Of a DNA stretch of 64,000 nt, positions 13,770-64,000 are shown piece by piece (position 1 is the stretch's first letter; every line of letters begins with the position of its first letter). The stretch is from assembly GCA_963768655.1 (NCBI GenBank), contig CAVYIM010000009.1, positions 231,440 through 295,439 on the forward strand, written 5' to 3'. Under the pieces are notes generated by a model. That model was not told the origin of the DNA, searched no databases, and saw nothing but the letters and a program-made list of their open reading frames with translations. Made by a program: the position numbers and the translations under genes. This DNA is from an uncultured Chloroflexia bacterium (GTDB taxonomy: Bacteria; Chloroflexota; Limnocylindria; Limnocylindrales; CSP1-4).

Positions 13770-15827
13770 TCAGCGCGAGCGGCGGCGCGGGGTCATCTGC
13801 GCAACGTGCGCGTCCGCCCGCCTGGTAAGCCCGTTGTCGGGGCCCAGCGTGCGGCGGAACACCTCGGCTACATAGCGGGCCTGGTTCCGGCCCGCGACCT
13901 TGCGTCCCAGCGCCGCCATGGCGTCGGCGTCGTGGCGCAGGACCTCGAGCGTGTCCGGATCCGCAGGGCCGGGGAACTTGCGGAGCAGAGCGAGCGCATC
14001 GGCATAGCGAGCCCGGGCGCCCGCCGGATCGCCCAGCTTGAGCAGGACGTCGCCGATGTGAGCGTACATGTCCGCCACCTTACGGTCTCGAGGGCCGAGG
14101 TTGCGGAGGTACGCGTCCAGAACTGTCTGGTACATGGCGCGGGCGGCATCGAGCTGGCCCAGCTTCTCCATCACCATGCTCAGGTTGTGGCCCAGGTGAA
14201 GCGTTCGAGGATCGTCCGGTCCGGCCGTGTCACGGCTCTCGGCATGGATCGGGCCGTAGGGTCCGGCGATGCGCTCATAAACGGCTCGAGCGGCCCTCTG
14301 CTCGTCCAGCTTCTCGTGCGTTTCGGCCAGCCAGAGCAGGCACTCGAGCGTGCGCTCGCTCCTGGGCCCCTTGTTTCGTTCGTAGGCGTTGGCCAGCTCC
14401 TGCCAGCGGGCGCGGGCCTTCTCCAGCTCGCCGACCTTGCCCAGCTCCCAGGCGTAGGCCTCCAGGGCCGTCAGGGCATCGTCCCCCTCGGGGCCCACGA
14501 TCCCGACCTGCGTTTCGTACAGGACGCGGTAGGCCTCAAGGGCGGCGGCGTGCGATTCCGCGCGCGCCAGGACGCGGGCAAGGCCCGTGAGAGCCCAGAT
14601 CGTGTCGGGCGCCTCGGGACCGAGGGTCACAAGCCGCCCTTCGGCGAGCTCGCGGTAGCGGGCCGCGGAGTTGGTCAGGTCACCGAGCTGCTCGAGGTTC
14701 CAGGCCAGATCGCCCAGGACCCATTGCGTGGCCACGTGGTCCTGGCCCAGAACCCGCCGCCGCGCTTCCAGCAGCTGCTCGTCGAGCTTGCGCGCCCGGA
14801 CATGCTCGCCGCAACGGCCGAGTGAGTCGGCGAGACCGGCCAGGGCGTCGAGCGTGGCGGTCTCCTCGGGGCCGACCTTGCGCCGCAGACGGCGGTACAG
14901 GTCTTCGTAGACCTGCGCGGCGGCGGCCGGGTCGCCGACGCGGAGCAGCAGCCGGCCGTGCTGGCCGCGGGCGGCGAGGGTCGCCGGGTTGTCCGGCCCC
15001 AGCGTGGAGATCGTGGCGGCGAGAGTCTGCTCCGAAAGCGCACGGCCCGACGTGCTGTGGCCCGCCCCCACCTGCGCCCGCGCCAGGCTGAGCATCGCCT
15101 CGAGAGTATCGGGGTGGGTCGCCCCCAGGAGGCGGCGGCTGCGCTCGACGCGCTCGGCGAGCACTTCGCTGGCGCGGGCGTAGTCCTCGATCGAGATCAG
15201 GATGCTGCCCAGGTTCGCCAGCGTGCGGATGACGGCCAGGCTGTCCGGGCCCAGCGTCTTGCGCTGCACCTCCAGGAGGGCCTCGAAGGTTCCACGTGCC
15301 GAGAGGTCGTCGGCGACGGCTCGTTGCGTCAGGCCCAGGTTGTGCAGGGCGCTGAGGGTGGCCGGATCCTCGGGGCCGAGCGAGTTGCGGCGGCCCGCGA
15401 CCACGCGTTCGTAGATCGGGCGGGCCTCCTCGGGTCTGTCCAGATACGAGAGGGCCACGGCCAGGCCGTGAGCCGCGGAGAGAGTATCGAGGTGGCGCGG
15501 TCCGAAGACACGATCGCAGCGCTCCAGCAGGATGGTGTACTGGTCACGGGCGGTCGAGTAGTCGTCGAGCTCGAGCCCGATAGCCGCGACTCGAGCTTCG
15601 GCCTCGAGCGTCGCCGGGTGCTCGGGACCGAGGAGCTTGCGGCGCGCATCCATGACCTGACGGCAAAGCGAACGCTTGACTCGCAGGTCCGGGAACCCTT
15701 CCAGAAGGACGTCCAGATCCTGTAGAGCCGCAAGGCCGGAGACAGACGGGACGTCCGAAGTGTCGGCGCCCGATGAGCCGCGATCCATCGACAGAGCAGA
15801 TTCTCCCGCCTGAGCCCCCGTGGCCAC
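13770..15827 (-). CDS. Tetratricopeptide repeat protein (kinesin-light-chain-like TPR; start uncertain)
   Basis: Many ~42-aa repeats containing LGPEHPATL / LGPDNPATL / LGPEAPDT motifs. Confidence 0.88.
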   Translation of the reverse strand: MATGAQAGESALSMDRGSSGADTSDVPSVSGLAALQDLDVLLEGFPDLRVKRSLCRQVMDARRKLLGPEHPATLEAEARVAAIGLELDDYSTARDQYTILLERCDRVFGPRHLDTLSAAHGLAVALSYLDRPEEARPIYERVVAGRRNSLGPEDPATLSALHNLGLTQRAVADDLSARGTFEALLEVQRKTLGPDSLAVIRTLANLGSILISIEDYARASEVLAERVERSRRLLGATHPDTLEAMLSLARAQVGAGHSTSGRALSEQTLAATISTLGPDNPATLAARGQHGRLLLRVGDPAAAAQVYEDLYRRLRRKVGPEETATLDALAGLADSLGRCGEHVRARKLDEQLLEARRRVLGQDHVATQWVLGDLAWNLEQLGDLTNSAARYRELAEGRLVTLGPEAPDTIWALTGLARVLARAESHAAALEAYRVLYETQVGIVGPEGDDALTALEAYAWELGKVGELEKARARWQELANAYERNKGPRSERTLECLLWLAETHEKLDEQRAARAVYERIAGPYGPIHAESRDTAGPDDPRTLHLGHNLSMVMEKLGQLDAARAMYQTVLDAYLRNLGPRDRKVADMYAHIGDVLLKLGDPAGARARYADALALLRKFPGPADPDTLEVLRHDADAMAALGRKVAGRNQARYVAEVFRRTLGPDNGLTRRADAHVAQMTPRRRSR

Positions 15828-15914
15828 TCATGATGCCAGGTTCGGCAGAGTTCGAGGGCGCGGCGGTTACGATAACGGAGCGCCCCGAATGGTGCCGTGG
15901 CACCTCGTCGAACG

Positions 15915-16070
15915 CCGGGAGATCGCCTTCAAGTCGGTCGAAATCGAGATTCCTGGTCGGCCTGGGCGTGGACGAGCTGTCGGCGGACGCTGCGTCGCCG
16001 GACGGGATCCGGGCGGCGCTTGCGGGAGTTGCGTCTGCGGAGCTGCGCGGTCTGGCGACCCGGGCTCATG
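15915..16070 (+). pseudogene. Remnant of PTS enzyme I (PtsI/PtsP) C-terminus
   Basis: LVGLGVDELSADAASPDGIRAALAGVASAELRGLATRA resembles the LxGLGxDELS end of PEP-protein phosphotransferases; no upstream domains present. Confidence 0.55.
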
Positions 16071-16113
16071 ATCGCGGCGGAACTGACTGCGCGCGGTCAG
16101 GCGCGCCTGCCCT

Positions 16114-16614
16114 CTACGCAGCGCCGGACATTCCGCCGGGGCTTGCAACCGTGCGCAGCGAGATCGCCAGCTCGCGGTTCACCAGCAACGTGCGGAACCA
16201 CTGCGAAACGGGCTCGCTGCAGAACTCGTACTCGAGCACCGCGTCCGTGATCGCGACCATGGCGGGCCTGCGGTCGAAGCTGCGGACCGGGTTCGCCGTC
16301 GGCGGGGCGTGCATGAAGCCTTCGGCACAGTAGGGGCCGAGCTTGACGGTCACGCCGTTCGGCTTGGTCGCGAGGCGTCGCTTGGGGTCGCCGCGAGGGC
16401 CGCTGGCCACGACGATGTCGAGCTCGTCACGGGAGATATCGAGCTTGTCGAATTCCTGGGTGTGGCCGTCCAGCGTGCTCACCAGGGTGACGTCGTGGAC
16501 GGTGATGGTCTTGCGGCGGTTGAGCAGGTCGGCCAGGCGCGAGTCCTCGAGGTCCACGCGTCCTTCGACGCGACAGTCCTCGGAAAAACCTACGAAGTCG
16601 ATGTCCGTTCCCAT
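16114..16614 (-). CDS. Hypothetical protein
   Basis: Protein-like ORF MGTDIDFVGFSEDCRVEGRV...FRTLLVNRE with GC3 bias; no family recognised. Confidence 0.7.
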   Translation of the reverse strand: MGTDIDFVGFSEDCRVEGRVDLEDSRLADLLNRRKTITVHDVTLVSTLDGHTQEFDKLDISRDELDIVVASGPRGDPKRRLATKPNGVTVKLGPYCAEGFMHAPPTANPVRSFDRRPAMVAITDAVLEYEFCSEPVSQWFRTLLVNRELAISLRTVASPGGMSGAA

Positions 16615-16831
16615 CTCGTCCCCTGATGATTGCTGGGGCATTGAAATGAATTTCCTACGGGTGGGATCGGACGAGTAGTCCCGATGAAGATACGCCGAAC
16701 GGGGAGGTACTCCGTCCGCAGCCCGCAGGATGAAACGCGGCCCGTCAGATGGGACGGACGGGGCCGGCGGCCCGCGTCGGGCCGACTGCGGATGTGGGAG
16801 CCGGACCCCGCCGCGGAGCCGCGCCTTCGGG

Positions 16832-17506
16832 TTACGGCCTCGGGTCAGCGCGACCCGCCGGCGCCTGGCCCGCGCTCGGTCCAGGCTTGCCCGAGGGGCC
16901 AACTCGCCTCTCCTGGCCGGAGAGCAGACGCTGGATGTTGTCGATGTGGAAGAGCCAGATGAGCCCCGGGACGCCGACGCCGTAGACGAAGTAGATCGGT
17001 GGCAGGGGGGCGACCGCGGTCCAGACGACCATGGCGATGCCGCCGATCAGCGTTGCGGTGAGCGACCCCAGTGACGAGATACGCGTGACCGCGATCACGA
17101 TCACGAAGACGGGGAAGATGATCGCCAGAATGACCGGCGCGATGATCAGGGCGCCCCCGGTGGCCGGCGCCACGCCGCGGCCGCCGTGGAAGCCGATGAA
17201 CGGCGAGCGACTGTGGCCGACGACGGCGGCCAGCGCGGCCGCGACCTGCGCCACCTGGTCGCCGCCGATGGCGATTACGAAGAGAACGGCGACGACTGCC
17301 TTGGCCACGTCGAGCAGTCCGGAGATGGCGGCCCAGCGGAAGCCGACCGCGCGCGACACGTTGGCGCCGCCGGTGCGGCCGCTACCCACGGTGCGCGGAT
17401 CGGGCCCGCCGATCAACCGCGGAACGATGATGCCGAAAGGAATGCCCCCAAGGAGATAGCCGGCGACCAGGGCGACGGCCACCCGGACGAGGTCGATGGT
17501 CTGCAT
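16832..17506 (-). CDS. plsY: Glycerol-3-phosphate acyltransferase
   Basis: GYLLGGIPFG, DPRTVGSGRTGGANV, GHSRSPFIGFHGGRGVA, HIDNIQRLLSGQE motifs. Confidence 0.93.
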   Translation of the reverse strand: MQTIDLVRVAVALVAGYLLGGIPFGIIVPRLIGGPDPRTVGSGRTGGANVSRAVGFRWAAISGLLDVAKAVVAVLFVIAIGGDQVAQVAAALAAVVGHSRSPFIGFHGGRGVAPATGGALIIAPVILAIIFPVFVIVIAVTRISSLGSLTATLIGGIAMVVWTAVAPLPPIYFVYGVGVPGLIWLFHIDNIQRLLSGQERRVGPSGKPGPSAGQAPAGRADPRP

Positions 17507-17552
17507 CGCCGCGAAGTATAGGGCGGCGAGTTGATGCCGAATTGGGTCGCCG

Positions 17553-18632
17553 CTAGCCGGCGCCTTCCTCCAGCTCGGCCAGGAAGCGCTCCGGGTTGTG
17601 GCGCAGCCACAACCGGCGGTCCGGGTGAGCGGCCACGTCCTCGACGAGATCCGCGAGGCGGGCGTTCACCGGCGTTGCGACCCCGATCTGTAGCCCGAAG
17701 CGAGCGACCGCGCCGTGCATCCAGGCCACTTCCGTCTGCTCGGGCGACGGCCCCTCGCCGGCCATCTGGACGTGGAGCCGCAGCGAGGGCAGTTTGCCGG
17801 CGCGCGCCCCACCCACGATTCGTCGCAGGATCGGGCGGCCCAGCCAGGACGGAAGCCTGACGGCGCGAGCCAGCCACGGGACGGCCGCGCCGGGCAGCCT
17901 GACCGGCCTGAGCCCGAGCGCGGTCATCACCGCCATTGTCTCCAGGAGCTGCCGCCGCTCGACCTCGAACAGCCGCTTGTCGGCGTAGATCGCGGCCGGA
18001 TCCATGTCGAGGATCGCCCCGGTGGCGTTGGCGATCAGGTTGGTCAGCAGCTTCGACCACTTCATCGCCTTCGCGTCGGACAGTTCCGCGGTGCGCAGGC
18101 CCGCGGGCGCGAAGTCGGCCAGCAGCGGCGCAATGAGCGGTTCCGCCGCAGGATTGGCTGCGGCCAGTGCGATCCCGCCGCGCCCGAGCCAGACGACCTC
18201 GTCCTCCGATACGAGGCGGATCGGGGCAGTCATCGAGCCGGCGATCTGCGGCGCCGACGGCCGGATCTCCGTGGCGGTCTCCTCTGCGCCGATGCCGTTC
18301 TCGACGGTCAGGGTTGGCACGTCCGGCCAGGCCAGCGTGGGCGCCAGCGCCTCGCGCAGGACGGGCATCTTCACCGCCACCAGGATCAGGTCCGGGCGGG
18401 TCGCGTCCTCCGTCCGCATGACCCGATGGACCGGCACGACCGCGCGCGTGCCGTCCGGCCGAACCAGCGTCACCGGCCGCTCCGACGGCCCCTCGAAGAT
18501 TTGGACGAGGGTGACGTCGTAGCCGGCGCTGCCCAGCAGCGTCCCGAGGAACGACCCGACGGCTCCCGCGCCCACGACCAGAACTCGTCGGGGGTTCCTG
18601 CTGTCGCAGTCCGATGGGGGCGCGGTCGGCAT
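17553..18632 (-). CDS. panE: Ketopantoate reductase (PanE/ApbA family)
   Basis: Rossmann VVGAGAVG, ILVAVK, ENGIG, KWSKLLTN, VATPVN. Confidence 0.82.
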   Translation of the reverse strand: MPTAPPSDCDSRNPRRVLVVGAGAVGSFLGTLLGSAGYDVTLVQIFEGPSERPVTLVRPDGTRAVVPVHRVMRTEDATRPDLILVAVKMPVLREALAPTLAWPDVPTLTVENGIGAEETATEIRPSAPQIAGSMTAPIRLVSEDEVVWLGRGGIALAAANPAAEPLIAPLLADFAPAGLRTAELSDAKAMKWSKLLTNLIANATGAILDMDPAAIYADKRLFEVERRQLLETMAVMTALGLRPVRLPGAAVPWLARAVRLPSWLGRPILRRIVGGARAGKLPSLRLHVQMAGEGPSPEQTEVAWMHGAVARFGLQIGVATPVNARLADLVEDVAAHPDRRLWLRHNPERFLAELEEGAG

Positions 18633-20872: not shown

Positions 20873-22014
20873 CTAGTGTCCCGTTGCGCAACTAGCTGAC
20901 TACGTATGGCGCTGGCAGCTACGATTGCGCCATGGCACAACTTCCTGCTCCAGCACTGGCGCTCTCGGAAGCCGACCGCGCAGCCCTGAGGGCGATCGCT
21001 CGCGCGTCGACGAGTCAGCAGCGAGCGGTGACGCGGGCGCGCATCCTCCTTCGGGCGGCCGACGGCATGGCCAACGAACACATCGCGGCCGAGCTCCACG
21101 TCAGTCCGACGACCGTGAAGCTGTGGCGGCGTCGGTATGGTGCCTCGGGCCTTGCCGGTCTGGCCGACGGGCATCGCAGCGGACGTCCGGCTCGCTACAC
21201 CCGAGAGGATCGAGATCGGGTGATCGCCCTGACCCTTGAGCCTCCGCCCGACGGGGTGACGCACTGGAGCGTTCGGCGTCTGGCGGCCCGGCTCACGATG
21301 AGCGAGACGACGGTTTGGCGAATCTGGCGGGAGGCCGGCGTCAAGCCGCATCGGACGGAAACGTTCAAGTTCTCGACCGATCCAGAGCTACAGGCCAAGG
21401 TCCGCGACGTCGTCGGGCTCTATCTGGACCCGCCCGACGGAGCCATCGTGCTCTCTATCGACGAGAAGACCCAGATCCAGGCCCTCGATCGAACAGCGCC
21501 GATGCTGCCGATGAAGCCCGGCCAGATCGAGCGCCACACCCACGACTACAAACGACACGGAACGACCTGCCTGTTCGCGGCCCTCGAGGTCGGCACCGGC
21601 GCGGTCACCGGCCAGACTCGTGCCCGTCACCGAGGCGAGGACTTCCTCGCGTTCCTGCGCCAGGTCGAGGCCGCCTATCCAGAGGGCGAGCTCCACGTTG
21701 TCCTCGACAACGTCAGCACCCACAAGACCCCCGCGGTTCGAGAGTGGCTCGCCGATCGGCCCCGGATCACATTTCACTTCACGCCCACATCCGCATCCTG
21801 GATGAACCAGGTCGAGACGTGGTTCGGCATCCTCTCCCGTCAGGCCATCCGGCGCGGCAGCTTCGGGAGCGTGAAGGAACTCATCGCCAAGATCCGCGCC
21901 TTCATCGACAGCTGGAATGCCGGTTCGACGCCCTTTGTCTGGGTCAAGACTGCCGACGAGATCCTCGCCAAAGCCGTTCGGAAGTCCTCAGCGACTTCCG
22001 AATCGGGACACTAG
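20873..22014. mobile_element. IS630-family insertion sequence with imperfect terminal inverted repeats at a CTAG/TA target
   Basis: Left CTAGTGTCCCGTTGCGCAACTAGCTGA vs right (reverse complement) CTAGTGTCCCGATTCGGAAGTCGCTGA, 22/27 identical; CTAG at both ends. Confidence 0.93.
20932..22014 (+). CDS. IS630 transposase
   Basis: N-terminal HTH; DDE motifs SIDEKTQIQAL, VVLDNVSTHK, SWMNQVETWF. Confidence 0.96.
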   Translation: MAQLPAPALALSEADRAALRAIARASTSQQRAVTRARILLRAADGMANEHIAAELHVSPTTVKLWRRRYGASGLAGLADGHRSGRPARYTREDRDRVIALTLEPPPDGVTHWSVRRLAARLTMSETTVWRIWREAGVKPHRTETFKFSTDPELQAKVRDVVGLYLDPPDGAIVLSIDEKTQIQALDRTAPMLPMKPGQIERHTHDYKRHGTTCLFAALEVGTGAVTGQTRARHRGEDFLAFLRQVEAAYPEGELHVVLDNVSTHKTPAVREWLADRPRITFHFTPTSASWMNQVETWFGILSRQAIRRGSFGSVKELIAKIRAFIDSWNAGSTPFVWVKTADEILAKAVRKSSATSESGH

Positions 22015-55832: not shown

Positions 55833-55908
55833 GCGCCCGTAGCTCAGTGGATAGAGCATCTGACTTCGGATCAGAGGGTCGGGGGTTCGAATCCCTCCGG
55901 GCGCGCCA
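55833..55908 (+). tRNA. tRNA-Arg, anticodon UCG
   Basis: Acceptor GCGCCCG/CGGGCGC plus GCCA; D arm TAGCTCAGTGGATAGAGC; anticodon arm TCTGA-CTTCGGA-TCAGA; T arm GGGGG-TTCGAAT-CCCTC; 76 nt. Confidence 0.97.
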
Positions 55909-55909
55909 C
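55892..55909 (+). repeat. att site, tRNA-proximal junction
   Basis: TCCCTCCGGGCGCGCCAC, identical to 63277-63294. Confidence 0.92.
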
Positions 55910-55910
55910 A

Positions 55911-57541
55911 CTAACCAGCGAGCGTAGCGGTCGCTGATGCGATCAGCGGCAGGTAGTCAGGGTGAGCCAGCCTCGCCTTCACGATCTCGTCGTCCCGGAC
56001 CTTGACTTCCGCGAACAGGTTCCGGCGATCTCGGCGCGCTCGGTAGGCGTGGCCTTGGACCAAAGCGTTCCGAGCTCTTGCAGCAGGCGCGCAGCGCGGA
56101 CCAGCACCGCCTCGCTGTAGGACGGCTGTGCGGCTCCTCCGTTGAGGGACGCGGTCAGTGCCCGCTTTCGGCCCACGTACTCGTCGCGGGTGATGTCGGC
56201 CTGCAGGAAGAGTTCCCGAAGGTTCGCCAGCTGCCGCTCGATCCGGGCCGTGTCGACAGTGGGACGTTGGATCTGAGCTTCGCGACGCTGGAGCCGCTCG
56301 ATGTCAGCCCGCCAGTCTGCCGGGATAACGAGGCTGGCCAGCCACGTCGCCAACCTGGTCCTCGAGTTGTGCCGAGCGAACGGCTCGCTGGTCGCAGGCG
56401 TGCCGCTCGCGCTGCGACGTGCACGCCATGTACAACACCGCTGGCGGCCGCTGCTCGACCGGTGGGCTTCACCGTAGAGGTTCGCCCCGCAACGGTCGCA
56501 GACGGCAAGCCGGCGGAACGGGTAGACGTTGTGAAGCTTGCCGCCGTTTGAGCCGCGGAACGACCGCGCCCGCACAGCCTTGATGGCCTGCCAGAGGCTC
56601 TCGTTCCAGATCGGTTCTTGCTCGCCCTGTTTCCACTCGGTGTCGTGGAAGTTGTGAGCCTTGCGCTCCTTGTCCGGCCGAGTGTGCCAGCCGACCTGGC
56701 CGACATATACGGGGTTGGAGACGATCACCCGGATCGAACTGCCCGAGAACGGTTCGCCCAGAGCGTTTCGATAACCCAGGAGGTTCATATGCGCGGCCAG
56801 CGGCCGAAACCCAGGATCCCGGTCGCGTAGGTTTCGCCGATGAGGCGGACAAGGTCGGCTCGCGTATATGTCGAGCCGAACCCGATGCGAGGCTGAGGCT
56901 CCGTGTCGAGGACGAGCTTGCCGGTCTCGACCAACTCCGAGCCGCCCTTGACCTTGTTGTAGACCGTCTCGTAGCTCATCCGATAGCCGATCGGGACGGT
57001 CCCGGACCACTTGCCGAGTTCGTATCGCTTCACCCGATACGCCTTCTGGACTTTCCCGCCGTGGAGAGTCAGGAACTCGTGCGAGAGAGCGGAGTGGACA
57101 GCCTGGCCAACCTGCTGGTCTGCGCTGCTGAGATCGTTCGTCTCGATGTAGACGACGATCACGCCGGCCTCGTGGAGCCGCTGCTCGTAGATCGCCGCCT
57201 CGCGTCGCTCTCGGGCGAACCGGCTCGTGTCGTAGACCAGGAGAACGTCGAACGCGCCGGCTTCCGCGTCGGCGATCATTCGCTGGAACTGCGGCCGGCG
57301 CGACGCCTTCGAGCCGCTGACGAAGTCCGTGTAGAAGGCGCCGTCGAAACCCTCTGCGCCCGGGTCCGCGTTCTCCACCTCGGCAAGCTCCAGGCCCCAC
57401 CGCGATGCGTATGCGTAGGCCGCGCTGCGTTGCACGATCGGCCCGGAGTTCTCACCCTGCTTCTTGGTCGACTCGCGGACCAGGCCCGCGCGCAACCAGG
57501 CCTCGAAGCTGCTCTGGGGCTCGCGGGAGCTGTCGCCTCAA
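55911..57541 (-). CDS. Large serine recombinase (resolvase, recombinase, Zn-ribbon, coiled coil) with several frameshifts in this sequence
   Basis: TTG start MRRQLPRAPEQLRGLVARG/LVRESTKKQ (catalytic Ser), RRPQFQRMI...DVLLVYDTSRFAR, PIGY, NPVYVG, CDRCG...YMAC; pieces lie in different frames. Confidence 0.88.
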
Positions 57542-57807
57542 TGAGGGCCTCCTGCCCTCGCGCCGTTGCTTGCCGCCGGCGAGGGCCTGCTAGGGCGGGA
57601 CCGACTCGATGGTCGCCGCCGTTGCCTCTCGCCACGATAGACCAAAGCGGGCGGGGTTGCCGCTACCGAAGCCGATGCGTGCCCCCGAGACACGGCTACC
57701 GGGCCATCTTCGGGAAGCCCAACGCTCTCTTGGGCCGCCTCCCGGCTGGCAACTGCGAGTGCGACTCGGGCGAGCACCGACATGAGTGGAAGCGCTTGCT
57801 CTCTCAT
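57538..57807 (-). CDS. 89-aa ORF between repSA and int (candidate directionality factor)
   Basis: ATGA overlap with the repSA stop and TTGA overlap with the integrase start. Confidence 0.5.
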   Translation of the reverse strand: MREQALPLMSVLARVALAVASREAAQESVGLPEDGPVAVSRGHASASVAATPPALVYRGERQRRRPSSRSRPSRPSPAASNGARAGGPH

Positions 57808-59155
57808 CCGGACAGGGCCGGCGAACGGGCGCTTCCGCGGTTACCCGCTGCGACGGCCCGCTCAGCGGGACTCAGACCTGCCCCGGCGAAGTGGAAGTCT
57901 CGCCGGATTACGACCTGGCCACCGGCGGCACGAGCGCGAATCCGGCTGAGCCACGGATCCGCATTCGCTCGAAACTCCGCCCGGACGGCGCGCAGCGCGG
58001 CGAAGGTGACCGAGTAGCGACGAGCCTTGGTCAGGAAGTGGCCACGAAAGCCCAGGTTGTGAGCCCAGCGTGGATTGAGCCTCCAGGCCGATCGCATCAG
58101 AGCGCGAGCATGAGGAGAGAGGTCGGCTCGTTCGATCACGCCCTCTACTCGGATCCGTCGATCAAGACCACCGGCAATCTGTGCGTCCTTGGTGGCGTAC
58201 TTGGCGAGGTAGCCCGCTACGCCGGCTCCGTGCCCGTCGCCTGCTTGCGGGCTCGCAGTTATCGGTCTCGTGTCGATCTGCTCACCCCAGCGGATCACCA
58301 TCTCACGTCCACCGGGTCCCGCCACCGTGACCGCTACGCGCGCCGCGGTGCGGGCGACGGCCTCCGCTAGACGCTGCGCCGTCGCTCCGCCCGCCGGCGC
58401 GGTGTCGGGACCGCCGGGTCCGTCGAGTCGGATGACCGCATGGACGTGGACCGATCCACGGGCCTGGAACTCGGCGACCTTGGCATAGGCGACACGGACC
58501 TGGCGTCGCAGGGCTGCCACGCTCAGGCCGCCCAAGGCCGCGAGCTCGCGAGGCAGGTACGTGATCGTCCGCCGCCACAGGGCTCCGAGGTTCGCGTTCC
58601 ATAGCGCCGCGGCTTCGTAGCCGTAGCAGTCGGGGCAGATGGCCTGGCCGACGAGCGGATCGCCATCTTCATGGCGAGCCGTGCAGCTTGTGGGAACGCC
58701 GTGCAAGCAAGCGCCGTCTACGCCGGGATGACACGGGCGGACCTGATCCTCACTCACGACTCGCCGATGGACTGCTCCGAACGAGGGAGCGGTGAACGTC
58801 GCGAAGACGACCGGGTGCGAGGCCACGGATGTCGAGACACTTTGGCCTCACTTCCCTCAAGCCCCGCGGCTACCAGGAAGTAGGCGTCGCGGCGATACCG
58901 CTCCGAGCAAGGCGGGCACCGCGACTCGCGTCGGTTGCCACAGGCGACCAGGACGAAGCCCGGAGCCTCGGACCTGGTCGATCGACGAGCGACAACCTGA
59001 CCAGTCGAAGCCAGCGCCGCGACCGACTCGCCCTCCAGGCGGATCGGCGAGGTACAACCGCCGGTTCGGCGGATCAGCTCGACGAGGGCAGGTGCGCCGG
59101 CGCCGTAGCGGGCAGCGAGCACCGCCAGCGACGCCGGCTCATGCACGAGCACCAC
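57804..59155 (-). CDS. repSA: RepSA-type rolling-circle replication initiator (frameshift near 58830-58860)
   Basis: GGCTSPIRL, CGNRRESRCPPCSERY, FATFTAPSFGAVH, KVAEFQARG, HUH motif VHVHAVIRLDG, YLAKYATK, WAHNLGFRGHFLTKARRYS. Confidence 0.9.
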
Positions 59156-59162
59156 CCGATCC

Positions 59163-59588
59163 TCAGGCGCTCTGCTCGGTGCGATGGAGCGTCTGCGGGA
59201 TCTGGGCCTTCACCGTCGCTCCACGAACCGCAGTCGCGCGGAACGACCACGCGAGGCGAGGCCGGGAGCCCGACGTGTCCACGTAACCGGTCGCTGTTAG
59301 GCCCTCGAAGGCAACGGCTGGGAAGGGCGAACCAGCCGGCGCCTGGGGAAGGGTCGGCGGATTGCGGGACGCGATCTTGACCTTGACGACCTTGTTCCGA
59401 GCCTCCGGATCGGCGTCGAAGACCGAGATCGCCCAGAGCGGCAGACCCGAGTCGCGATCGTGCGCCTGGACCCGCTGCTCGGGTGTCGAGGCATCGAAGT
59501 CGATGACCTGCTCTACGCCTCCGACCGCGTATGCGCCGGCTGGGAACAGGAGCTCGTGGGTGATGGGGATGTTTCTGCCGAGTGCCAT
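59163..59588 (-). CDS. Pra-like protein (actinomycete element replication/integration/excision activator family)
   Basis: AAGGAG RBS; FPAGAYAVG.VEQVIDFD...DRDSGLPLW...DADPEAR...VKVKIAS...FEGLTA..Y...RLAWSFRA, recognised from AICE proteins. Confidence 0.7.
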   Translation of the reverse strand: MALGRNIPITHELLFPAGAYAVGGVEQVIDFDASTPEQRVQAHDRDSGLPLWAISVFDADPEARNKVVKVKIASRNPPTLPQAPAGSPFPAVAFEGLTATGYVDTSGSRPRLAWSFRATAVRGATVKAQIPQTLHRTEQSA

Positions 59589-60116
59589 GGATCTACTCCT
59601 TGTCTGATTTCGAACAGCACGAAAGAACCGACGCGCTGCGCACAGCTATCGCCGGATAGAGCTCGCCTAAGCGGCTCGAAAGAGTGGGGGCGGGCGCTCT
59701 GTCTTGGTCCGAAATGTCTAGCCGGACCTGCGCCGGTCGCCACCAAAGACGCTAGGCCGACCGACTCCGAGAGTCAAGGCTTCTGCGTACCATCCGGCGT
59801 ACCATCGGCGGATTTGGCCGCTGTCCGAGCCGAAATCGAGCCTGGGAGAGCTGCCGGCGGCCACGAAAACTGCCCGCTGGCGGACACAAACCGGGACCGA
59901 GCCTGGATCCCGGCGAGACGGTCAGGGCGGGCTCTACCTGACTTCGCTCGATCGCTGCGACCGGCGAGTATGGCCCGATGCACGGGGTCATCGGGCGGGT
60001 TCGCCTGTTATCGCCGCGATCCGCTCAACGAGGCCGACAACGGGGCAGCCCTTCGACTTGTTACGACTTTCTCTACGAGATCAAGTGAGCGCCAGGTGAG
60101 CGGCGCCCGGTAGGGT

Positions 60117-60365
60117 GTGAAGCGCAAGGCACTCTTCGCGACGATGGCAGATGCACTGAATGGTTCAGGGCTCGCTGTAGGTCCCGCGAACTCGGGTACT
60201 GTCGGTTTGAGCTATCCACAGAGCCATCCCCGAACGTGGACAGGAGTTGTGGAAGGGTGCCTAGCCGCCGGACCTTCGGTGTCGCACACTAACGCTTGGG
60301 CTGGGCCTTTGGTTGCTCTCGCGGTGGCGACGCTGCGGAACGAGTCCGCGCGGAGGCTGAGTTAG
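60117..60365 (+). CDS. Hypothetical small protein
   Basis: 82-aa ORF immediately upstream of the methyltransferase; no family recognised. Confidence 0.35.
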   Translation: MKRKALFATMADALNGSGLAVGPANSGTVGLSYPQSHPRTWTGVVEGCLAAGPSVSHTNAWAGPLVALAVATLRNESARRLS

Positions 60366-60386
60366 AATAGAACAAGGGTTCTGCCA

Positions 60387-61847
60387 ATGGAGGTCTCTCA
60401 CGTGCGGGAAATGCCATCGCCGCCCGACTTGGACAGTAACGCGAACCAACGCCAGGCGGTCGGCGACGACGACGACGACGGCGGCGGCCCGACGTCACAG
60501 GTAACCGTCCGCCGCCACAAAGTGCGAGCCACCGCCGAGACACTTTGGTCTCCTGAAGCGGTCGGCATCCCCACAAGACTCCGTGTTCGGCGCGGAGACG
60601 GACTCCGGTCGATCTCGCTGTTCACAGGCGCCGGTGGTTTGGATCTCGGGTTGTCCAGAGCTGGAGGCGGAGAGATCCAGTTCGGCGCGTGGGTGGAAAA
60701 GGACGAGGACTCCCGCGAGACGATTGCCCTGAACCACCCAACCGGGCGAGACGCGATCTTCGGCGACATCACCAAAGTCCACCCGACGCAGCTCATGCAG
60801 GCCGCGGGCTTGTCTAGAGGCCAAGCCTTCTTGGTGGCGGGAGGGCCGCCGTGCCAAGCGTTCAGCACTGCAGGCTTACGTCAGTCGATACACGAGCCGC
60901 GCGGACAGGTAGTCGATCGCTATTTCGACATCATCCGCGAGGTTAGGCCTCGGTTCTTTGTGTTTGAGAATGTCCGCGGCTTGGCATCCGTCGCGATCAA
61001 ACATCGCCGCTATGTGGACAGGATCGCCAGCGAGAAGGAGAACCCCGGCGAGCCGGACCTTGAGGCAGACCAACGGCTTGGCTCGGTCTTTGACCAGGTT
61101 TCTGGCCCAACATGAAGAGCCTGGGTTACGAGGTCGTCTTTGCACTCCTGAATGCCGCCGATTATGGCACGGCCCAAGTTAGGCATAGGTTCGTCTTCTT
61201 GGGTAGTCGAGATCACGAGTTTGGCTCGGGTACGTTTCGCAAGATGACGGGGCAGACCATGACCCTGCAGGACCTGCTCCCTCCAACTCACCACCGGCTG
61301 GCGCCCTACAGCCCAATAGAGCCGTGGCGCGTTCTACGAGATGCCATTGGTGGTATGCCAGAGCCAGACCCGAGGGAGACTTTCACCTACAGTCCGGAGC
61401 GCATCAATGTGTGGAAACGAATTCCAGCTGGACGCTACTGGACGTATGTCCGCGACAACCCGGTGTTGTTCCCTGAGGGGCTCGAAGCTCTACTGAAGGG
61501 CGCGTTCTCATCTGGGGGCGGTAAGGTTGGCTTCTGGCGGAGGCTCTCTTGGGACAAGCCATCGCCGACCCTCCCGACACAACCACAACATCGGCGACAG
61601 GGTTGTGCCACCCCGATGTCGAAAGGCCCCTATCAGTGCCGAGCATGCGGCGCTCCAGGATTTCCCAGAGGGCTACCGGTTCGCTGGCAACAAGGCGAGC
61701 AAGTACAAGCAGATCGGAAATGCTGTGCCGGTGCGACTCGGGGAGGCCTTAGGAAACCTGCTACTCTCCGTCGCGAGCGGCGGGGCAGTAAGGGGCACCA
61801 TTGAGGAAGAGGAAGACCCGCTACCAGTGAGAGTGGTATCAGCTTGA
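60387..61847 (+). CDS. C5 DNA cytosine methyltransferase (frameshifts near 61100 and 61590-61640; start uncertain)
   Basis: Motif I SLFTGAGGLD, IV GGPPCQAFS, VI FENVRG, VII/VIII LNAADYG.AQ.R.R, WRRLSWDKPSPT, X YKQIGNAVP. Confidence 0.93.
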
Positions 61848-62683
61848 CCGTTCCGCACGAGGTTGTGTGCCAACACATTGACCAGGCAGTGAAGGTTGCC
61901 GTTCAGCGTGTCACCGACCGTGCTGAGGAACTGTTTACGTCCGAAGTTGCGAGTGCCGCCAATGGCGGAGCATCTCCGTTTCAGAAGCTTCTGCTGCCCG
62001 AAGCGAAGATCTTCTCGTCATTTGAGCGATCTCTCAGTGCCTCGTTAGGAAAGGCGTTCGACTACATCGGCGCCGACATCGCGCGAGCTACATACGGTAA
62101 TGGCCAGCACGACTACTCGTACCACGGCTCGATTTCCCCGGAAACGCTCGGCGCGATTGAGGTGATTGTCGCGCGATACAAAGCGAAGGGGACACTGCAC
62201 AGGATGCCCGACACGGTCGCCGAGTTAGCGGAACTCGCGCCGATTATTGAGGCCAGCGAGCCGACAGTGAGTCGCACGATCAAGAACGACGTCTATTTTG
62301 TTGACCACGACCAGATCAAGAATTTCCTTGAGATCAAGACGGTTCAACCGAACTACGACACTTGCGACAAGATGAAGACTCGTATCCTGACAATCCATGC
62401 GATGCATCATGGCGGCGCCGACAAGATTTGTGCGCTGGTCGTCTTTCCTCACAACCCCAACGGCCTTGAGGGCATCTATGCTTGGCCGCCGCTCCAGTAC
62501 TTCCTGGATCCACAACACGATTGGAAGGCTCGAGGGCAAGCCCTGATGGGGCCTGGTCTGTGGAACTTCCTCGGCGACTCGGACGGTACATACGATGAAT
62601 TGATGGACTGCTTCTACGAGGTGTCCATCAAACGAAAAGACGAGATGTTAAGCTCTGCTAAGGCTGACCGTGGAGTAGCGTGA
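61844..62683 (+). CDS. Type II restriction endonuclease (TdeIII-like, PD-(D/E)xK)
   Basis: SSFERSLSASLG, NDVYF...FLEIKTVQPN, LWNFLG...TYDEL; coupled to the MTase. Confidence 0.78.
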   Translation: MTVPHEVVCQHIDQAVKVAVQRVTDRAEELFTSEVASAANGGASPFQKLLLPEAKIFSSFERSLSASLGKAFDYIGADIARATYGNGQHDYSYHGSISPETLGAIEVIVARYKAKGTLHRMPDTVAELAELAPIIEASEPTVSRTIKNDVYFVDHDQIKNFLEIKTVQPNYDTCDKMKTRILTIHAMHHGGADKICALVVFPHNPNGLEGIYAWPPLQYFLDPQHDWKARGQALMGPGLWNFLGDSDGTYDELMDCFYEVSIKRKDEMLSSAKADRGVA

Positions 62684-63090
62684 AGAACCTAGCGATCACG
62701 TGCCCGCCCGACTCCTGGCCCGCTGGCCTGGACGGATGCGTCTGCCTGGGGATTTCGGAGGCCCGAGGGGCGGACGCTCTCTGGCTCGTCTTCCGAGGTT
62801 CCGACCGCACGGTTACCTCGGTGTCGGGTTTCCTTTTCGAGGGAGTCGAAGTGCCCCCGGACATCACAGCGCTGGAGCCCGCGGTCGTTGCTTCCGGCCC
62901 AAGGAGTCTCTGGGTACTGATCGCAGAGGACAGAACTGCCTTCTACAAGGCCGTTGCCGGCGGGAAGCTGCATATCGGAGGCGACTTTCGGGAGTTTGGT
63001 CGTCTGGCCAGAAGGCTGATACGCCTTACCGAGCAGTTGGAGTTGTGGACGCAGCTCGACGCCATCCTTGATTACGTCCAATCCTCGTAG
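62680..63090 (+). CDS. Hypothetical protein, weak SCP2-like C-terminal pattern
   Basis: GTGA overlap with the REase; LWVLIA...FYKAVAGGKLHIGGD. Confidence 0.6.
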   Translation: MKNLAITCPPDSWPAGLDGCVCLGISEARGADALWLVFRGSDRTVTSVSGFLFEGVEVPPDITALEPAVVASGPRSLWVLIAEDRTAFYKAVAGGKLHIGGDFREFGRLARRLIRLTEQLELWTQLDAILDYVQSS

Positions 63091-63161
63091 ACCTGAGGGA
63101 GCGGCTGCGCCTACGAACCAGACGTCCGATGAGCCACAGGCGAGAGCTAACGCGTCATGCT

Positions 63162-63194
63162 GAGCGCACCGAGCGCACCGAGCGCACCGAGCGC
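63162..63194. repeat. 9-bp tandem repeat GAGCGCACC (about 3.7 copies)
   Basis: Direct reading of the sequence; just inside the right end of the element. Confidence 0.85.
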
Positions 63195-63204
63195 CGTTGA
63201 TGTC

Positions 63205-63276
63205 CTAGGCGGCCTGAAGCGCCTCGACCAGCTCGTCCAGGCCCTCGATCGCGAAGGTTGGTGGCGTGCGTTTGTT
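63205..63276 (-). other. Orphan coding tail NKRTPPTFAIEGLDELVEALQAA* abutting the distal att site
   Basis: 24 codons, strong GC3 in the distal part, no start codon of its own, in frame with the att core (VARPEG). Confidence 0.65.
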
Positions 63277-63294
63277 TCCCTCCGGGCGCGCCAC
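63277..63294 (+). repeat. att site, distal junction
   Basis: Identical to the tRNA 3' end; part of an inverted repeat GTGGCGTGC-N16-GCGCGCCAC (63261-63294). Confidence 0.92.
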
Positions 63295-63386
63295 TCATTC
63301 GGGTAGTGACTGAAAACCCAAAGGCATAGGCGCCGGGTGAGCGCATCCATGTGAGATCCGGTCGTCAGTATCCGGCGAGTGCGTGG

Positions 63387-64000
63387 CTACCAAGGGTCCA
63401 CGACCCCTCGAAGGTCGAAGCCGAGGCTGGTGTAGGCACCGGCGCGCTTGGAATGCATCCGCGCCAGGACGGGATCCTGTAGTCCACGTAGTCATGCACC
63501 TCGACCCTCGTCTTGCCCTCGACCGGCCTGAGCACGCGGCCGACGTACTGGACGATTTGGCCCCGGAAGGCGATCGGAAACGCTATAAACAGCGTGTCCA
63601 GCGGCGGACAATCGAAACCCTCGCCCAGGAGACTGCCGGTGGCCACGAGCACTACGCCATCGCCGGGCTGCGTCGCCGCAAGTCGATCGACGATCGCTCG
63701 TCGCTCTTTTCTGCCCATGCCTCCGACCAGGACGTCTGGGCGAACTCCCATTTCCTCAAGTCGATCTCGGATAAAGCCCACATGCTGCTTCCATTGAGAG
63801 AGAACGAGGCAGTTGCGGCCCGACTGCACGGCCGCAGCGATGTCGCCACAGACCTGGCGAGTCCTAGCGTCATCCTCTACCAGCGAGCGGAAGACGGCCT
63901 GGATGGTGGGAGGCACCTCGCTTGTGCCGGTGACTGGATTTCCGTGGTTGGTTGGATGGACGACTAGCGTGCGCACCACGCCCGCCGTCGCGCCGGGATC
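63387..64000 (-). CDS. SF2 (DEAD/DEAH-box) helicase C-terminal part (truncated by window; frameshift near 63480)
   Basis: VLVATGSLLGEGFDCPPLDTL, QYVGRVLR, VHDYVD, then ARMHSKRAGAYTSLGF in another frame. Confidence 0.85.

Follow-up and report, generated by a model that had tools for sequence, protein, structure and literature searches.

Integrative mobilizable elements and cis-mobilizable accretion arrays carry an integration module without conjugation genes, and a helper mobilises the former through oriT and a relaxase. The pSAM2-type AICEs combine Pra, RepSA and Int genes with TraB/FtsK, Spd, KorSA and xis. As described by Ghinet 2011, 19 of 144 AICEs use a serine recombinase, a tRNA target is called rare for these, and actinomycetes also hold elements that lack tra and combine rep with pra, in some cases with int as well, which are treated as exceptions or leftovers. 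In the SSV-type 'suicidal' archaeal integrases, as presented in PMC8371274, the recombination site lies in the integrase gene, which is split when the element integrates into a tRNA gene. In mycobacteriophage BPs, according to PMC4557955, attP lies in a coding region and integration yields a C-terminally shorter protein, while the longer viral form has an ssrA-like degradation tag; the BPs integrase is likewise described there as bearing a C-terminal proteolysis signal.

Within a window of 64,000 nucleotides (the whole stretch of DNA that was analysed), we characterized a 7.4 kb mobile element of a Chloroflexota bacterium from peat, with a tRNA-Arg gene as its insertion site (Table 1). The element is bounded by a 30-nt repeat (55880–55909 and 63265–63294, 83% identity) that contains an exact 18-nt core, TCCCTCCGGGCGCGCCAC, and the 3' end of the tRNA-Arg(TCG) gene stays intact in its presence. 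Between the cores, the minus strand carries the serine integrase, RepSA and Pra genes and the plus strand carries a C5-methylase/TdeIII-endonuclease cargo. A preliminary description had proposed an element of about 7.4 kb with these three genes between att repeats, and the 18-nt cores, the tRNA-Arg gene and the Pfam domains establish that it is real. Like the pSAM2-type AICEs, it has Pra, RepSA and Int genes, including a RepSA-type initiator and a site-specific integration module (serine integrase domains, with the core at the tRNA-Arg 3' end and again 7.4 kb downstream). Unlike them, it lacks TraB/FtsK, Spd, KorSA and xis, resides in a Chloroflexota host, and shows a protein identity of only 39–47%. 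Its integrase, a serine recombinase at a tRNA site, belongs to the minority integrase type in AICEs. The window element probably belongs to a TraB/FtsK-less family of small elements, both integrative and self-replicating, in a peat-dwelling Chloroflexota genus, with the backbone and life cycle proposed below.

Table 1. Features of the element and its integration target, in window coordinates.
Feature	Position	Strand	Basis
tRNA-Arg (anticodon TCG), integration target	55833..55908	+	ARAGORN; Rfam RF00005, 72.8 bits
Large serine integrase, integrated form	55871..57541	-	Pfam Resolvase 3.8e-15, Recombinase 8.6e-09
attL core, 18 nt, identical to attR core	55892..55909	no strand	repeat comparison
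Gap between repSA and int, probably non-coding	57496..57803	-	six frames all with negative codon score; no Pfam/NCBIfam match
repSA, rolling-circle replication initiator	57804..59155	-	PF20199 positions 92-434 (5.6e-99) and 5-88 (7.8e-26), two frames
pra-like gene, 141 aa, intact	59163..59588	-	141 homologues; NCBI name Pra on one, in a Limnocylindrales MAG
Conserved non-coding backbone upstream of pra	59589..60085	no strand	within the 55868-60085 stretch aligned to G151 and L112
Variable cargo slot, here 3.1 kb, lower G+C (55-63%)	60086..63204	+	comparison with G151 and L112
C5 cytosine DNA methyltransferase, three frames	60387..61847	+	PF00145 model positions 2-128, 130-193, 280-320; PADLOC MTase_II
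TdeIII-family type II restriction endonuclease, full length	61844..62683	+	PF09520 positions 3-241 of 242, 9.3e-35; PADLOC REase_II
136-aa ORF in cargo, no assigned function	62680..63090	+	codon score +17.9
Detached int 3' end, 23 codons (NKRTPPTFAIEGLDELVEALQAA) and stop at 63205-63207	63205..63276	-	attR arm translation
attR core	63277..63294	no strand	repeat comparison

The host is a member of the Chloroflexota and not, as for AICEs, an actinomycete. Its RpoB is 75% identical to that of a Chloroflexota MAG, and a 75-row RpoB tree joins the two as a pair (support 100) within the clade of all 8 Chloroflexota rows and apart from the 3 Actinomycetota rows. No WhiB was found in the host genome (88.6% complete). 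These results agree with the non-actinomycete host that had been proposed. Additionally, the left flank of the element matches kin genomes of the host genus at 78–93%, and an NCBI record places one Pra homologue in Candidatus Limnocylindrales.

The backbone (55868–60085) is 96.6% identical to the corresponding region of a genome of another species, G151, over 4,221 columns (about 99.4% over 57868–60085, which takes in the segment upstream of pra) and 98.7% identical to a related locus, L112. With a G+C content of 63–71%, matching the host, these ∼4.3 kb read as an operon-like pra-repSA-int block that is homologous (about 40–47%) to the replication and integration module of pSAM2-type AICEs. 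RepSA matches PF20199 in two frames with scores of 332.7 and 91.6 bits; its halves in the assembly (57804–58826 and 58754–59155) are separated by a missing C at 58839, and it is 97% identical to the intact RepSA of G151. The strings VHVHAV and YLAKYATK, which we take to be HUH-like motifs, are legible in its translation. RepSA matches 24 plasmid records at 40–45% identity, every one of them from an actinomycete genus, and its match to PF23343, the replication family of filamentous-phage G2P, falls short of the threshold (24.5 bits, cut-off 27.8). The pra-like ORF has no Pfam or NCBIfam match. Its product is 39–47% identical to three actinomycete records, one of which is annotated 'plasmid replication, integration and excision activator', and 40% identical to the annotated Pra of a 4.3-kb plasmid (X335 plasmid NC_019317). 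The nearest Atlas clusters (0.96–0.97) carry the Pra name; clusters of that name occur most often in Actinomycetota. The roles given here to Pra and RepSA are carried over from pSAM2 by homology of only 40–47%.

The gene order had been given as pra-like, repSA, a small ORF and int on one strand. While pra, repSA and int do lie on the minus strand, the small ORF (57538–57807) is unsupported: its codon score is −21.9 with a GC3 of 0.63, the score of the gap is below zero in each of the six frames, and no family match was found. Most other ORFs of the element score +18 to +85, and two frameshifted methylase pieces and the N-terminal piece of repSA score about zero or below. Upstream of pra, no ORF in 59589–60085 passes the codon score, and a direct repeat, GCGTACCATC, is present twice at 59785–59806. 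This segment is a candidate promoter or origin region.

In the assembly, int occupies two reading frames with at least five frame-breaking indels (at about 55927, 56022, 56349, 56452 and 56812, plus 57487 near the start, which is either 57495 or 57541). The window copy retains PF00239 and PF07508 in two frames, and an intact 553-aa orthologue in G151, 99% identical over residues 19–245, has PF00239, PF07508 and PF13408, the resolvase catalytic, recombinase and zinc-ribbon domains of a large serine recombinase. The second Cys pair is legible in the window only in a shifted frame. The C-terminus of the integrated form is ...VSVARPEG-FEPPTL*, of which the final six codons and the stop are tRNA antisense; the G151 protein likewise ends within tRNA antisense (ARPEGFEPPTL*). 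The right-hand 90 nt of the element (63205–63294) are more than an att repeat, as the attR arm extends the int frame by 23 codons to a stop and is the 3' end of int, separated from the rest of the gene. On a circular map drawn from this arrangement, attP falls within int, 23 codons upstream of its stop, so that integration swaps out a conserved C-terminal tail whose codons are read only from the circular element.

Comparison of related copies is consistent with a maintained tail. The reading frame and stop are preserved in 11 of 14 attR-arm copies, and among 44 Int homologues 31 have the tRNA read-through end and five, down to 46% identity, have a contiguous tail. All five contiguous tails, and nine of the 11 detached ones that are intact, end in Ala-Ala (LLAA, LRAA, LQAA and similar). 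The pN/pS of the tail frame is 0.54, compared with 0.99 and 1.15 in the two other same-strand frames, a modest signal of selection since an antisense frame scores about as low (0.56); variable columns number 11, 10 and 15 by codon position. AlphaFold2, from a 26-row alignment with four tail-bearing sequences, predicts a low-confidence linker (residues 544–556, pLDDT <50) followed by a strand and helix (559–572, block pLDDT 72–79), with the terminus as a helix and not a free disordered end.

The window int resembles the SSV-type genes in holding its own attP (in the circle, 23 codons separate the core from the stop, with contiguous forms in five of 44 homologues) and in being split on integration. 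In contrast to an archaeal tyrosine recombinase inactivated by the split, this is a serine integrase of a bacterium, and the split costs it no more than the final 23 codons, leaving all the catalytic and DNA-binding domains in place. The coding-region attP and the shortened integrated form recall BPs, and the Ala-Ala tail ends may do so too. However, the split gene here is a serine integrase and not a repressor, the BPs integrase is a tyrosine recombinase, and the element is not a phage. The circle would encode a full-length integrase with the conserved strand-helix tail ending in Ala-Ala, and the integrated copy encodes an Int in which six tRNA-antisense codons replace the tail. We propose that such an isoform switch may alter the direction or the stability of the integrase. 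Tentatively, and with more doubt than confidence, we suggest that the switch replaces a separate directionality factor or sets the half-life of the protein, and so governs integration versus excision in a TraB-less Pra-RepSA family spreading between Chloroflexota species by a route not yet described. If true, this would be a bacterial serine integrase with a built-in isoform switch.

By homology, Pra would switch on repSA and int, and the integrase would join attL to attR through the 18-nt core, which lies at the 3' end of tRNA-Arg(TCG). RepSA, as an HUH-type initiator, would then amplify the circle by rolling-circle replication, and the integrase would put the circle back into tRNA-Arg.

As assembled, about 10 frameshifts break int, repSA and the methylase gene; they span 55927 to 61600 and run onward into the flanking helicase. 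Since the genes are intact in related copies and the breaks go on through the helicase to where the contig stops, the most likely cause is consensus error at the terminus of a long-read contig rather than decay. The indel excess passes attR into the helicase (63470) against two references, while 2.6 kb of left flank aligned with a 92% relative show 0 indels. Missing bases are present in contigs from other samples at 56812 (X1, X11), within 58807–58918 (X1, X2, X11) and at 63470 (X11); within 58807–58918, near-identical contigs are 1 nt longer in three of the four metagenome runs, the fourth (X3) having no listed contig there. If the frameshifts were instead true mutations, the window copy would be a decaying, immobile remnant now fixed in the chromosome. 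We regard this as unlikely, though it would account directly for some ten frame-breaking indels, for a second RepSA copy of the same genome (contig C3) that is split too, and for the tally against G151 (8 indel events, 130 mismatches), a ratio that fits the pseudogene range. Moreover, no breaks occur in rpoB or in about 20 chromosomal genes of contig C6; assembly quality is thus not low throughout, and any errors would have to be local. A remnant would not be expected to carry its indel excess beyond attR into a non-element gene, as seen with two references and one metagenome contig, nor to have an indel in 58188–59979 despite about one substitution per kb relative to contigs of other samples. 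The alternate frames of int retain conserved residues, with ∼96% amino-acid identity where nucleotides differ by 9%, and the chromosomal ftsK of the host genome is likewise split. A broken methylase beside an intact endonuclease would be lethal if real, which also counts for artefact.

Among 401 genomes of the phylum, strong RepSA matches were confined to the host genus (the host genome and four of the six other sampled members), and pra-repSA DNA matches occur in at least 10 of 20 other genomes of the genus. The family comprises 64 metagenome loci and 141 Pra homologues. The search for RepSA and Pra loci without FtsK that had been proposed yielded 18 elements in which the integrase is visible (serine type in 4, tyrosine type in 14), varying in cargo. 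Elements of the family measure 4–9 kb, occur in several copies per genome, use at least five tRNA targets and are near-identical across species. No FtsK_SpoIIIE (PF01580) was found in 164 proteins (the window's 14 ORFs and 150 from 28 related loci), and none of the 14 ORFs matched an FtsK/TraB, relaxase or capsid family, as claimed at the outset. In each of five genomes the one strong FtsK (about 800 aa) is on a different contig from the RepSA loci; the exception is G151, where the closest RepSA fragment is 76 kb away. Lack of the TraB translocase is thus the norm of the whole family and not a single deletion; the actinomycete tra-less forms are treated as exceptions, whereas this Chloroflexota family is tra-less by rule. 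The element resembles integrative mobilizable elements and accretion arrays in its own integration/excision module, its lack of conjugation machinery and the att-type arms repeated beside cargo blocks (three copies on contig C8 of the host genome, four in contig C1 of G403), but differs in that no oriT, relaxase or helper was identified.

Because the backbones of the window and G151 are 96.6% identical and syntenic blocks of the two species' chromosomes only 76–85% (75.7–85.2%), the comparison points to recent horizontal spread between species. Candidate routes would be helper conjugation, transduction, transformation and vesicles. No VirB4-like or coupling-protein family was detected in five genomes of the genus (no AAA_10 above cut-off, no TraG-D_C). 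Spread between species without conjugation genes would suit a phage satellite or movement by transduction: on infection by a helper phage, Int and Rep would cut the element out and copy it, and a small circle or a concatemer of it would be packaged. The 4–9 kb size, the layout of integrase, replication initiator and activator, the defence-type cargo and the sub-threshold G2P match of RepSA recall phage-inducible islands. We nevertheless consider this improbable, given that none of the 164 proteins matched a capsid, terminase, packaging or Zot-like family, a search of IMG/VR with Pra gave a single weak match (37% over 47 residues), and no helper phage was identified. Still less credible, and in our view very improbable, is an origin by deletion from an ordinary TraB-encoding AICE, with recent arrival from an actinomycete or mis-binning from one. 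RepSA and Pra are otherwise known from actinomycetes, and the actinomycete origin of all 24 plasmid records matching RepSA and the distribution of the Atlas Pra clusters would favour it. Any such transfer must be old at 39–47% protein identity, TraB is present in 0 of 18 relatives with a visible integrase, kin elements lie within contigs of up to 471 kb, the left flank matches kin of the host genus and the backbone G+C matches the host. The absence of FtsK across the related loci speaks against a mere deletion derivative, which the preliminary description had named as a result that would refute its reading.

On the circular junction that the preliminary description proposed to look for, no such junction and no 'goes back' joint was seen in the contigs of four metagenome runs, and terminal overlaps were found in 0 of 62 related contigs. 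A single contig, from one run and at low depth, joins 55891 to 63277 (18 nt shared), where intervening DNA is possible. In another genome, G406, the helicase orthologue (96%) lies ∼210 nt downstream of a tRNA-Arg gene, and the interval holds no element.

Similarity to G151 and L112 ends at 60085 and restarts at 63204/63205, with other DNA of 4.5 kb and 4.8 kb between, which places a variable cargo slot immediately after the int stop codon. The methyltransferase and endonuclease proposed for this slot belong to the expected families; however, the methylase is spread over three frames (ORFs 60387–61115, 61112–61804 and 61527–61847, with frame breaks near 61100 and near 61595), among which all motif regions are present. 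The type II pair would protect the host and penalise loss of the element. Addiction to it as a stabiliser does not hold as a family property, as the slot holds other DNA in the nearest relatives and has zero depth in four metagenome runs. Cargo in the family includes R-M, HEPN, HNH, MazF and NUDIX genes, and the R-M pair is one of several interchangeable cargos. This status of the R-M pair, the three frameshifted genes and the attP inside int had been overlooked in the preliminary description. The 136-aa ORF has no match in Pfam, NCBIfam or PADLOC. Homologues of the endonuclease are mostly 273–290 aa at 57–77% identity, three being named (Cyanothece, Pseudomonas and Primorskyibacter), and the specificity of TdeIII is presumably GGNCC.

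The window is the terminal 64 kb of contig C9 (295 kb) in the host genome (G000; 3.37 Mb, 9 contigs, 69% G+C). The element within it lies between two copies of an 18-nt core made up of the last 17 nt of a tRNA gene plus one base. The central reading of the preliminary description holds: the element is real, and its parts are as follows.

Features of the element and its boundaries
Feature	Position	Strand	Evidence
tRNA-Arg(TCG)	55833-55908		Rfam, 72.8 bits
attL core	55892-55909		end of tRNA-Arg(TCG) plus one base
Large serine recombinase (int)	between cores	minus	Resolvase and Recombinase domains
RepSA	between cores	minus	PF20199, 5.6e-99 and 7.8e-26
pra-like gene, 141 aa	between cores	minus	homology, names of relatives
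C5 methylase	between cores	plus	
TdeIII-family endonuclease	between cores	plus	9.3e-35
ORF of 136 aa, no assigned function	between cores	plus	
attR core	63277-63294		exact copy of attL core

Because Pfam and NCBIfam contained no match to the pra-like gene, three other results were used to assign it. Its product is 39-47% identical to three actinomycete records, one of them annotated 'plasmid replication, integration and excision activator'; an 83% homologue from a Candidatus Limnocylindrales MAG carries an NCBI name of the same kind; and Atlas clusters with a Pra-type name match at 0.96-0.97. A profile search of the element's scanned ORFs revealed no FtsK/TraB, relaxase or capsid families. Using a codon model trained on the host genome, most other element ORFs scored +18 to +85, with values around zero or below for two frameshifted methylase pieces and the repSA N-piece. 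The 'small ORF' previously placed between repSA and int (57538-57807) scored -21.9 and the repSA-int gap was negative in all six frames; this gap is treated here as non-coding. The tRNA was the sole match in an Rfam scan, and a promoter scan found 0 sigma-70-like sites. Terminator-like sites (7 versus 3.9 expected) were set aside as evidence. A PDB sequence search with the full-length integrase returned a single weak match (3g13, E 2.8e-4), and identity to large serine recombinases from phage records was just 22-25%.

Beyond what was first described, the integrase gene is split by integration. The intact integrase of a related element in G151, a genome of another species of the host genus, ends in '...VSVARPEG FEPPTL' and a stop, where 'ARPEG' is encoded by the core and 'FEPPTL' with its stop by the antisense of the tRNA T-arm. 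At attR, the same strand and frame read on as 'ARPEG NKRTPPTFAIEGLDELVEALQAA' to a stop codon (63205-63207) that falls exactly at the cargo junction. Judging from the sequence, the 90 nt resuming at 63205 are more than an att arm. Since this tail frame continues int at attR, the circular order would be pra, repSA, full-length int, cargo and the pra upstream region, placing the predicted attP inside int, 23 codons ahead of its stop. We compared 14 copies of the arm (the window's, three on contig C8 of G000, nine regions from four kin genomes, and one in the metagenome contig L112). The 23-codon frame and its stop are kept in 11 of these, with two disrupted and the core not located in one. Across the 11 intact arms, pN/pS was 0.54 in the int frame; the two remaining frames of that strand gave 0.99 and 1.15, and one of the antisense frames 0.56.

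Among 44 Int homologues, 31 end in tRNA read-through, 5 carry a contiguous tail, such as P0165 ('...ARPEGFERTSPTFVIEGVDELVEALRAA') and P0198 (46% identity; '...TRQTFRITGVDALVARLLAA'), and 8 end otherwise. We regard the 31 read-through and 5 contiguous-tail forms as the most telling indication of a split int. Within 51 genomes of the genus no contiguous int-plus-tail copy was found, matches stopping at residues 554-557 of 573. P0165 was modelled with AlphaFold2 (26-row alignment, mean pLDDT 75.5): residues encoded by the core fall in a linker of low confidence (544-556), and the tail is modelled as a short strand plus helix (559-572, block pLDDT 72-79). In another serine-integrase lineage, which targets tRNA-Pro and aligns only over its N-terminal 185 residues (31% identity), the gene likewise reads into its tRNA ('...GARGFEPPTSS...'); its attR was not located in locus L104, where no repeat of at least 12 nt involved the tRNA.

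Two integrase C-termini are thus observed, and from this anatomy we infer that integration swaps one for the other, giving two isoforms tied to the physical state of the element. The tail may affect directionality, and a separate directionality factor is not evident. An int truncated by integration offers a directly testable model of directionality control in large serine integrases that operate without such a factor; large serine integrases are widely used in genome engineering. Alternatively, the Ala-Ala end of the tail may act as a degradation signal, by analogy with mycobacteriophage BPs, for which PMC4557955 describes a C-terminal degradation signal.

The description first given needs correction, as int, repSA and the methylase are all frameshifted in the assembled window. 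Against the G151 element, which aligns over 55868-60085 (96.6%, 130 mismatches, 8 indel events), the int stretch has +G at 55927, -G at 56022, +G at 56349, +8 nt at 56452, -G at 56812 and +C at 57487, with -C at 58839 in repSA and +G at 60042. The methylase contains two frame changes, at about 61100 and about 61595, its Pfam model positions 2-128, 130-193 and 280-320 falling in three ORFs. Conserved residues survive in shifted frames, for example the second Cys pair of the integrase, 'LYMACTSQRERHAC'. We consider it probable that these frameshifts are consensus errors. Real decay of the window's copy is rather unlikely, although a pseudogene would also fit the indel-to-mismatch ratio, and rpoB and ~20 genes on contig C6 of the same assembly are unbroken.

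Several results argue against decay. Contigs from other peat metagenomes restore missing bases: the one at 56812 is present in runs X1 and X11, contigs of X1, X2 and X11 are 1 nt longer than the window across 58807-58918, and an X11 contig has the extra base at 63470. This last position is not part of the element; it belongs to a helicase gene just beyond attR (63365-64000, minus strand), in which the missing C shifts ~40 C-terminal residues. Comparison with either of two references, a 94% copy on C8 and a 96% orthologue in G406, another genome of the genus, reveals the deletion. On the left side of the tRNA, a comparison with a 92% relative shows 0 indels in 2.6 kb, and a further 2.9 kb has just one in-frame 27-nt and one intergenic 1-nt indel; the excess of indels thus coincides exactly with the final 8.1 kb of the contig. 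Additionally, the endonuclease is full length whereas its methylase is broken. The chromosomal ftsK of G000 (C7:170744-171275) is split over two frames (open frames of 570 and 264 aa), while in four kin genomes it is one frame of ~800 aa, a sign that indel errors extend beyond the element. The final 706 nt of the window have a 94% copy at C8:12827-13533, which probably accounts for the end of contig C9 at this point. On C8, a group II intron reverse transcriptase/maturase (L186:13803-15410) comes after the helicase paralogue.

As proposed earlier, the host is not an actinomycete. Its rpoB is a single open frame of 1162 codons, and RpoB is 75% identical to that of a Chloroflexota MAG; identity is 66-67% with Sphaerobacter and a further Chloroflexi MAG, and 58-64% with three actinobacterial rows. 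In a FastTree of 75 rows the host pairs with the Chloroflexota MAG (support 100), in a clade that takes in all 8 Chloroflexota rows and is separate from the one with 3 Actinomycetota rows. WhiB was not found in the host genome (15 candidates scored; 88.6% complete). The chromosomal left flank of the element matches same-genus genomes at 78-93%, and contig C9 therefore belongs to the host organism. This chromosomal part also contains an IS630-family transposase (21028-22014, plus strand; NF033545, 2.2e-86), and a similar DDE_3 transposase adjoins the tRNA-Lys of the element on contig C3 of G000 (L007:6963-8021). A 685-aa TPR protein (13770-15827, minus strand) resembles the FxSxx-COOH system TPR family at 284.7 bits, against a cut-off of 300.

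The element belongs to a family lacking TraB. G000 has three RepSA loci, intact on C6 and split on C9 and C3. Across 401 genomes of the phylum, strong RepSA matches (>400 bits) were limited to the host genus (G000 and 4 of 6 others sampled), with matches below 40 bits in three more genomes (two outside the genus; one in another genus of the same family). DNA matches to pra-repSA occur in at least 10 of 20 other genomes of the genus, often several per genome, and we collected 141 Pra homologues (E 1e-3 or better) and 64 metagenome loci. Eighteen elements have a visible integrase: 14 tyrosine, beside tRNAs Lys(TTT), Leu(CAA), Cys(GCA) and Ser(TGA), and 4 serine (window, G151, L104, L159), beside Arg(TCG) and Pro(CGG). 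Several of the tyrosine-integrase elements carry an HTH_17 Xis. The absence of FtsK noted at first extends to the relatives: FtsK_SpoIIIE was found in 0 of 164 proteins scanned (14 + 19 + 41 + 90) from the window and related loci. Five genomes each have one strong FtsK of ~800 aa that is not on a contig with RepSA loci, except in G151, where it lies 76 kb from the nearest RepSA fragment. Replication initiators in 24 plasmid records, every one from an actinomycete genus, share 40-45% identity with RepSA, which makes the link to AICEs an old one and not a recent import.

At ~12900-13250 of L105 (G151:C5), the near-identical G151 element abuts just the 3' 41 nt of a tRNA-Arg, its similarity to the window starting at 55868; ARAGORN detected no tRNA beside it, and a resolvase fragment (L105:3546-3863) adjoins its other end. 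The site looks rearranged or nested. At L007 (G000:C3), genes for a 530-aa serine recombinase, an N6/N4 methylase and a Rep_1-family protein (14197-18094) lie ~2.3 kb past pra, on the side away from repSA and int, and are possibly a second, unrelated small element.

Syntenic chromosome blocks of G000 and G151 share 75.7-85.2% nucleotide identity, and the element backbones 96.6%, rising to ~99.4% over 57868-60085. On this cross-species near-identity in sequence, the element has evidently moved between species. Twenty runs from peat, permafrost or bog, each from a different study, contain 22-33% of the element's words; in the four runs aligned, the matched share is the backbone. One X2 contig joins 55891 to 63277, with 18 letters common to both, consistent with an empty site, or with other DNA between. 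In G406, a helicase orthologue follows tRNA-Arg by ~210 nt with no element between; it was rejected as an exact empty site, its tRNA being just 81% identical and the exact core absent. The suggested search for circular junctions gave no joint leading back to the start in contigs of four runs, and 0 of 62 related contigs had terminal overlaps. Five genomes of the genus contained no TraG-D_C and no VirB4-like AAA_10 above cut-off, and IMG/VR contained a sole, weak Pra match.

Previous work has regarded RepSA/Pra modules as peculiar to actinomycetes and bound up with mycelial conjugation through TraB. That an uncultured Chloroflexota genus from peat has a diversified family of them, in multiple copies and across species, shows that the replication/integration module can persist without TraB-type transfer, and raises the question of how such elements move. 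By analogy with pSAM2, as described in Ghinet 2011, Pra would activate the repSA-int block, Int would excise the element, RepSA would replicate the circle by the rolling-circle mode, and Int would re-integrate it. The element resembles the replication/integration half of an AICE but lacks two defining features, TraB and an actinomycete host. Ghinet et al. report serine recombinases in 19 of 144 AICEs and call tRNA targets rare among these enzymes. Archaeal SSV-type tyrosine integrases also have attP within int, but according to the review PMC8371274 the split there inactivates the gene, whereas the window's element loses just the integrase tail. Neither RepSA/Pra elements in Chloroflexota nor a serine integrase whose own gene contains attP was described in the literature searched, most subscription journals lying outside its scope.

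The R-M pair reported at the outset is present, but as optional cargo in a variable slot. Similarity to G151 and L112 (whose Pra is 100% identical to the window's) ends at 60085 and returns at 63204/63205, with unrelated DNA between (4.5 kb in G151, 4.8 kb in L112). The window's R-M cargo (60137-63007) had zero depth in four metagenome runs and no match among the 64 metagenome loci, results that have no bearing on the origin of the cassette. Contigs of X2 and X11 leave at 60085 and rejoin at 63227 and 63205, respectively; with intervening DNA possible, a cargo-free form is not claimed. R-M-like sets occur in three elements: the window's, L107 (C5 methylase and HNH enzyme) and L112 (N6/N4 methylase). 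Cargo elsewhere in the family includes ECF sigma factors with Kelch or unassigned partners, HNH, HD, HEPN, NUDIX with HTH-DUF5919, MazF, Phd and Fic. In function, the R-M pair would act against DNA entering the cell and penalise cells that lose the element. With R-M, HNH, HEPN, toxin-antitoxin and ECF-sigma cargo in a fixed slot, these elements are likely to serve as carriers of defence and regulatory genes in a soil phylum about which little is known.

Directly upstream of pra in L104 (7827-9069) and L143 (5658-6885), a NUDIX gene lies next to an HTH_31-DUF5919 gene, and the L104 NUDIX protein matches PADLOC candidate PDC-S07. Pif of pSAM2 is a NUDIX protein; by analogy, the pair may be an immunity module inherited from AICEs. 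At 63162-63194, on the right edge of the window's cargo and immediately ahead of the int stop codon, the 9-mer GAGCGCACC is repeated in tandem (three complete units and a partial fourth). In the conserved non-coding backbone, the direct repeat GCGTACCATC occurs twice at 59785-59806, and contigs of three runs skip 129-145 nt from ~59804/59810 to 59940/59950, which suggests that this region (59804-59950) exists in length variants. Lastly, a 95-nt arm of int tail plus core occurs three times on C8 (2869-2963, 12737-12831 and 19067-19161; locus L186) and four times within ~70 kb of G403, also of the host genus (C1, 851-919 kb). The blocks it bounds carry DUF4143/AAA_14 ATPases, a HigB-like gene paired with an HTH gene, an IS110 transposase, a ParB_N gene and a helicase, and the arrangement looks like a tandem island array with a common att system.
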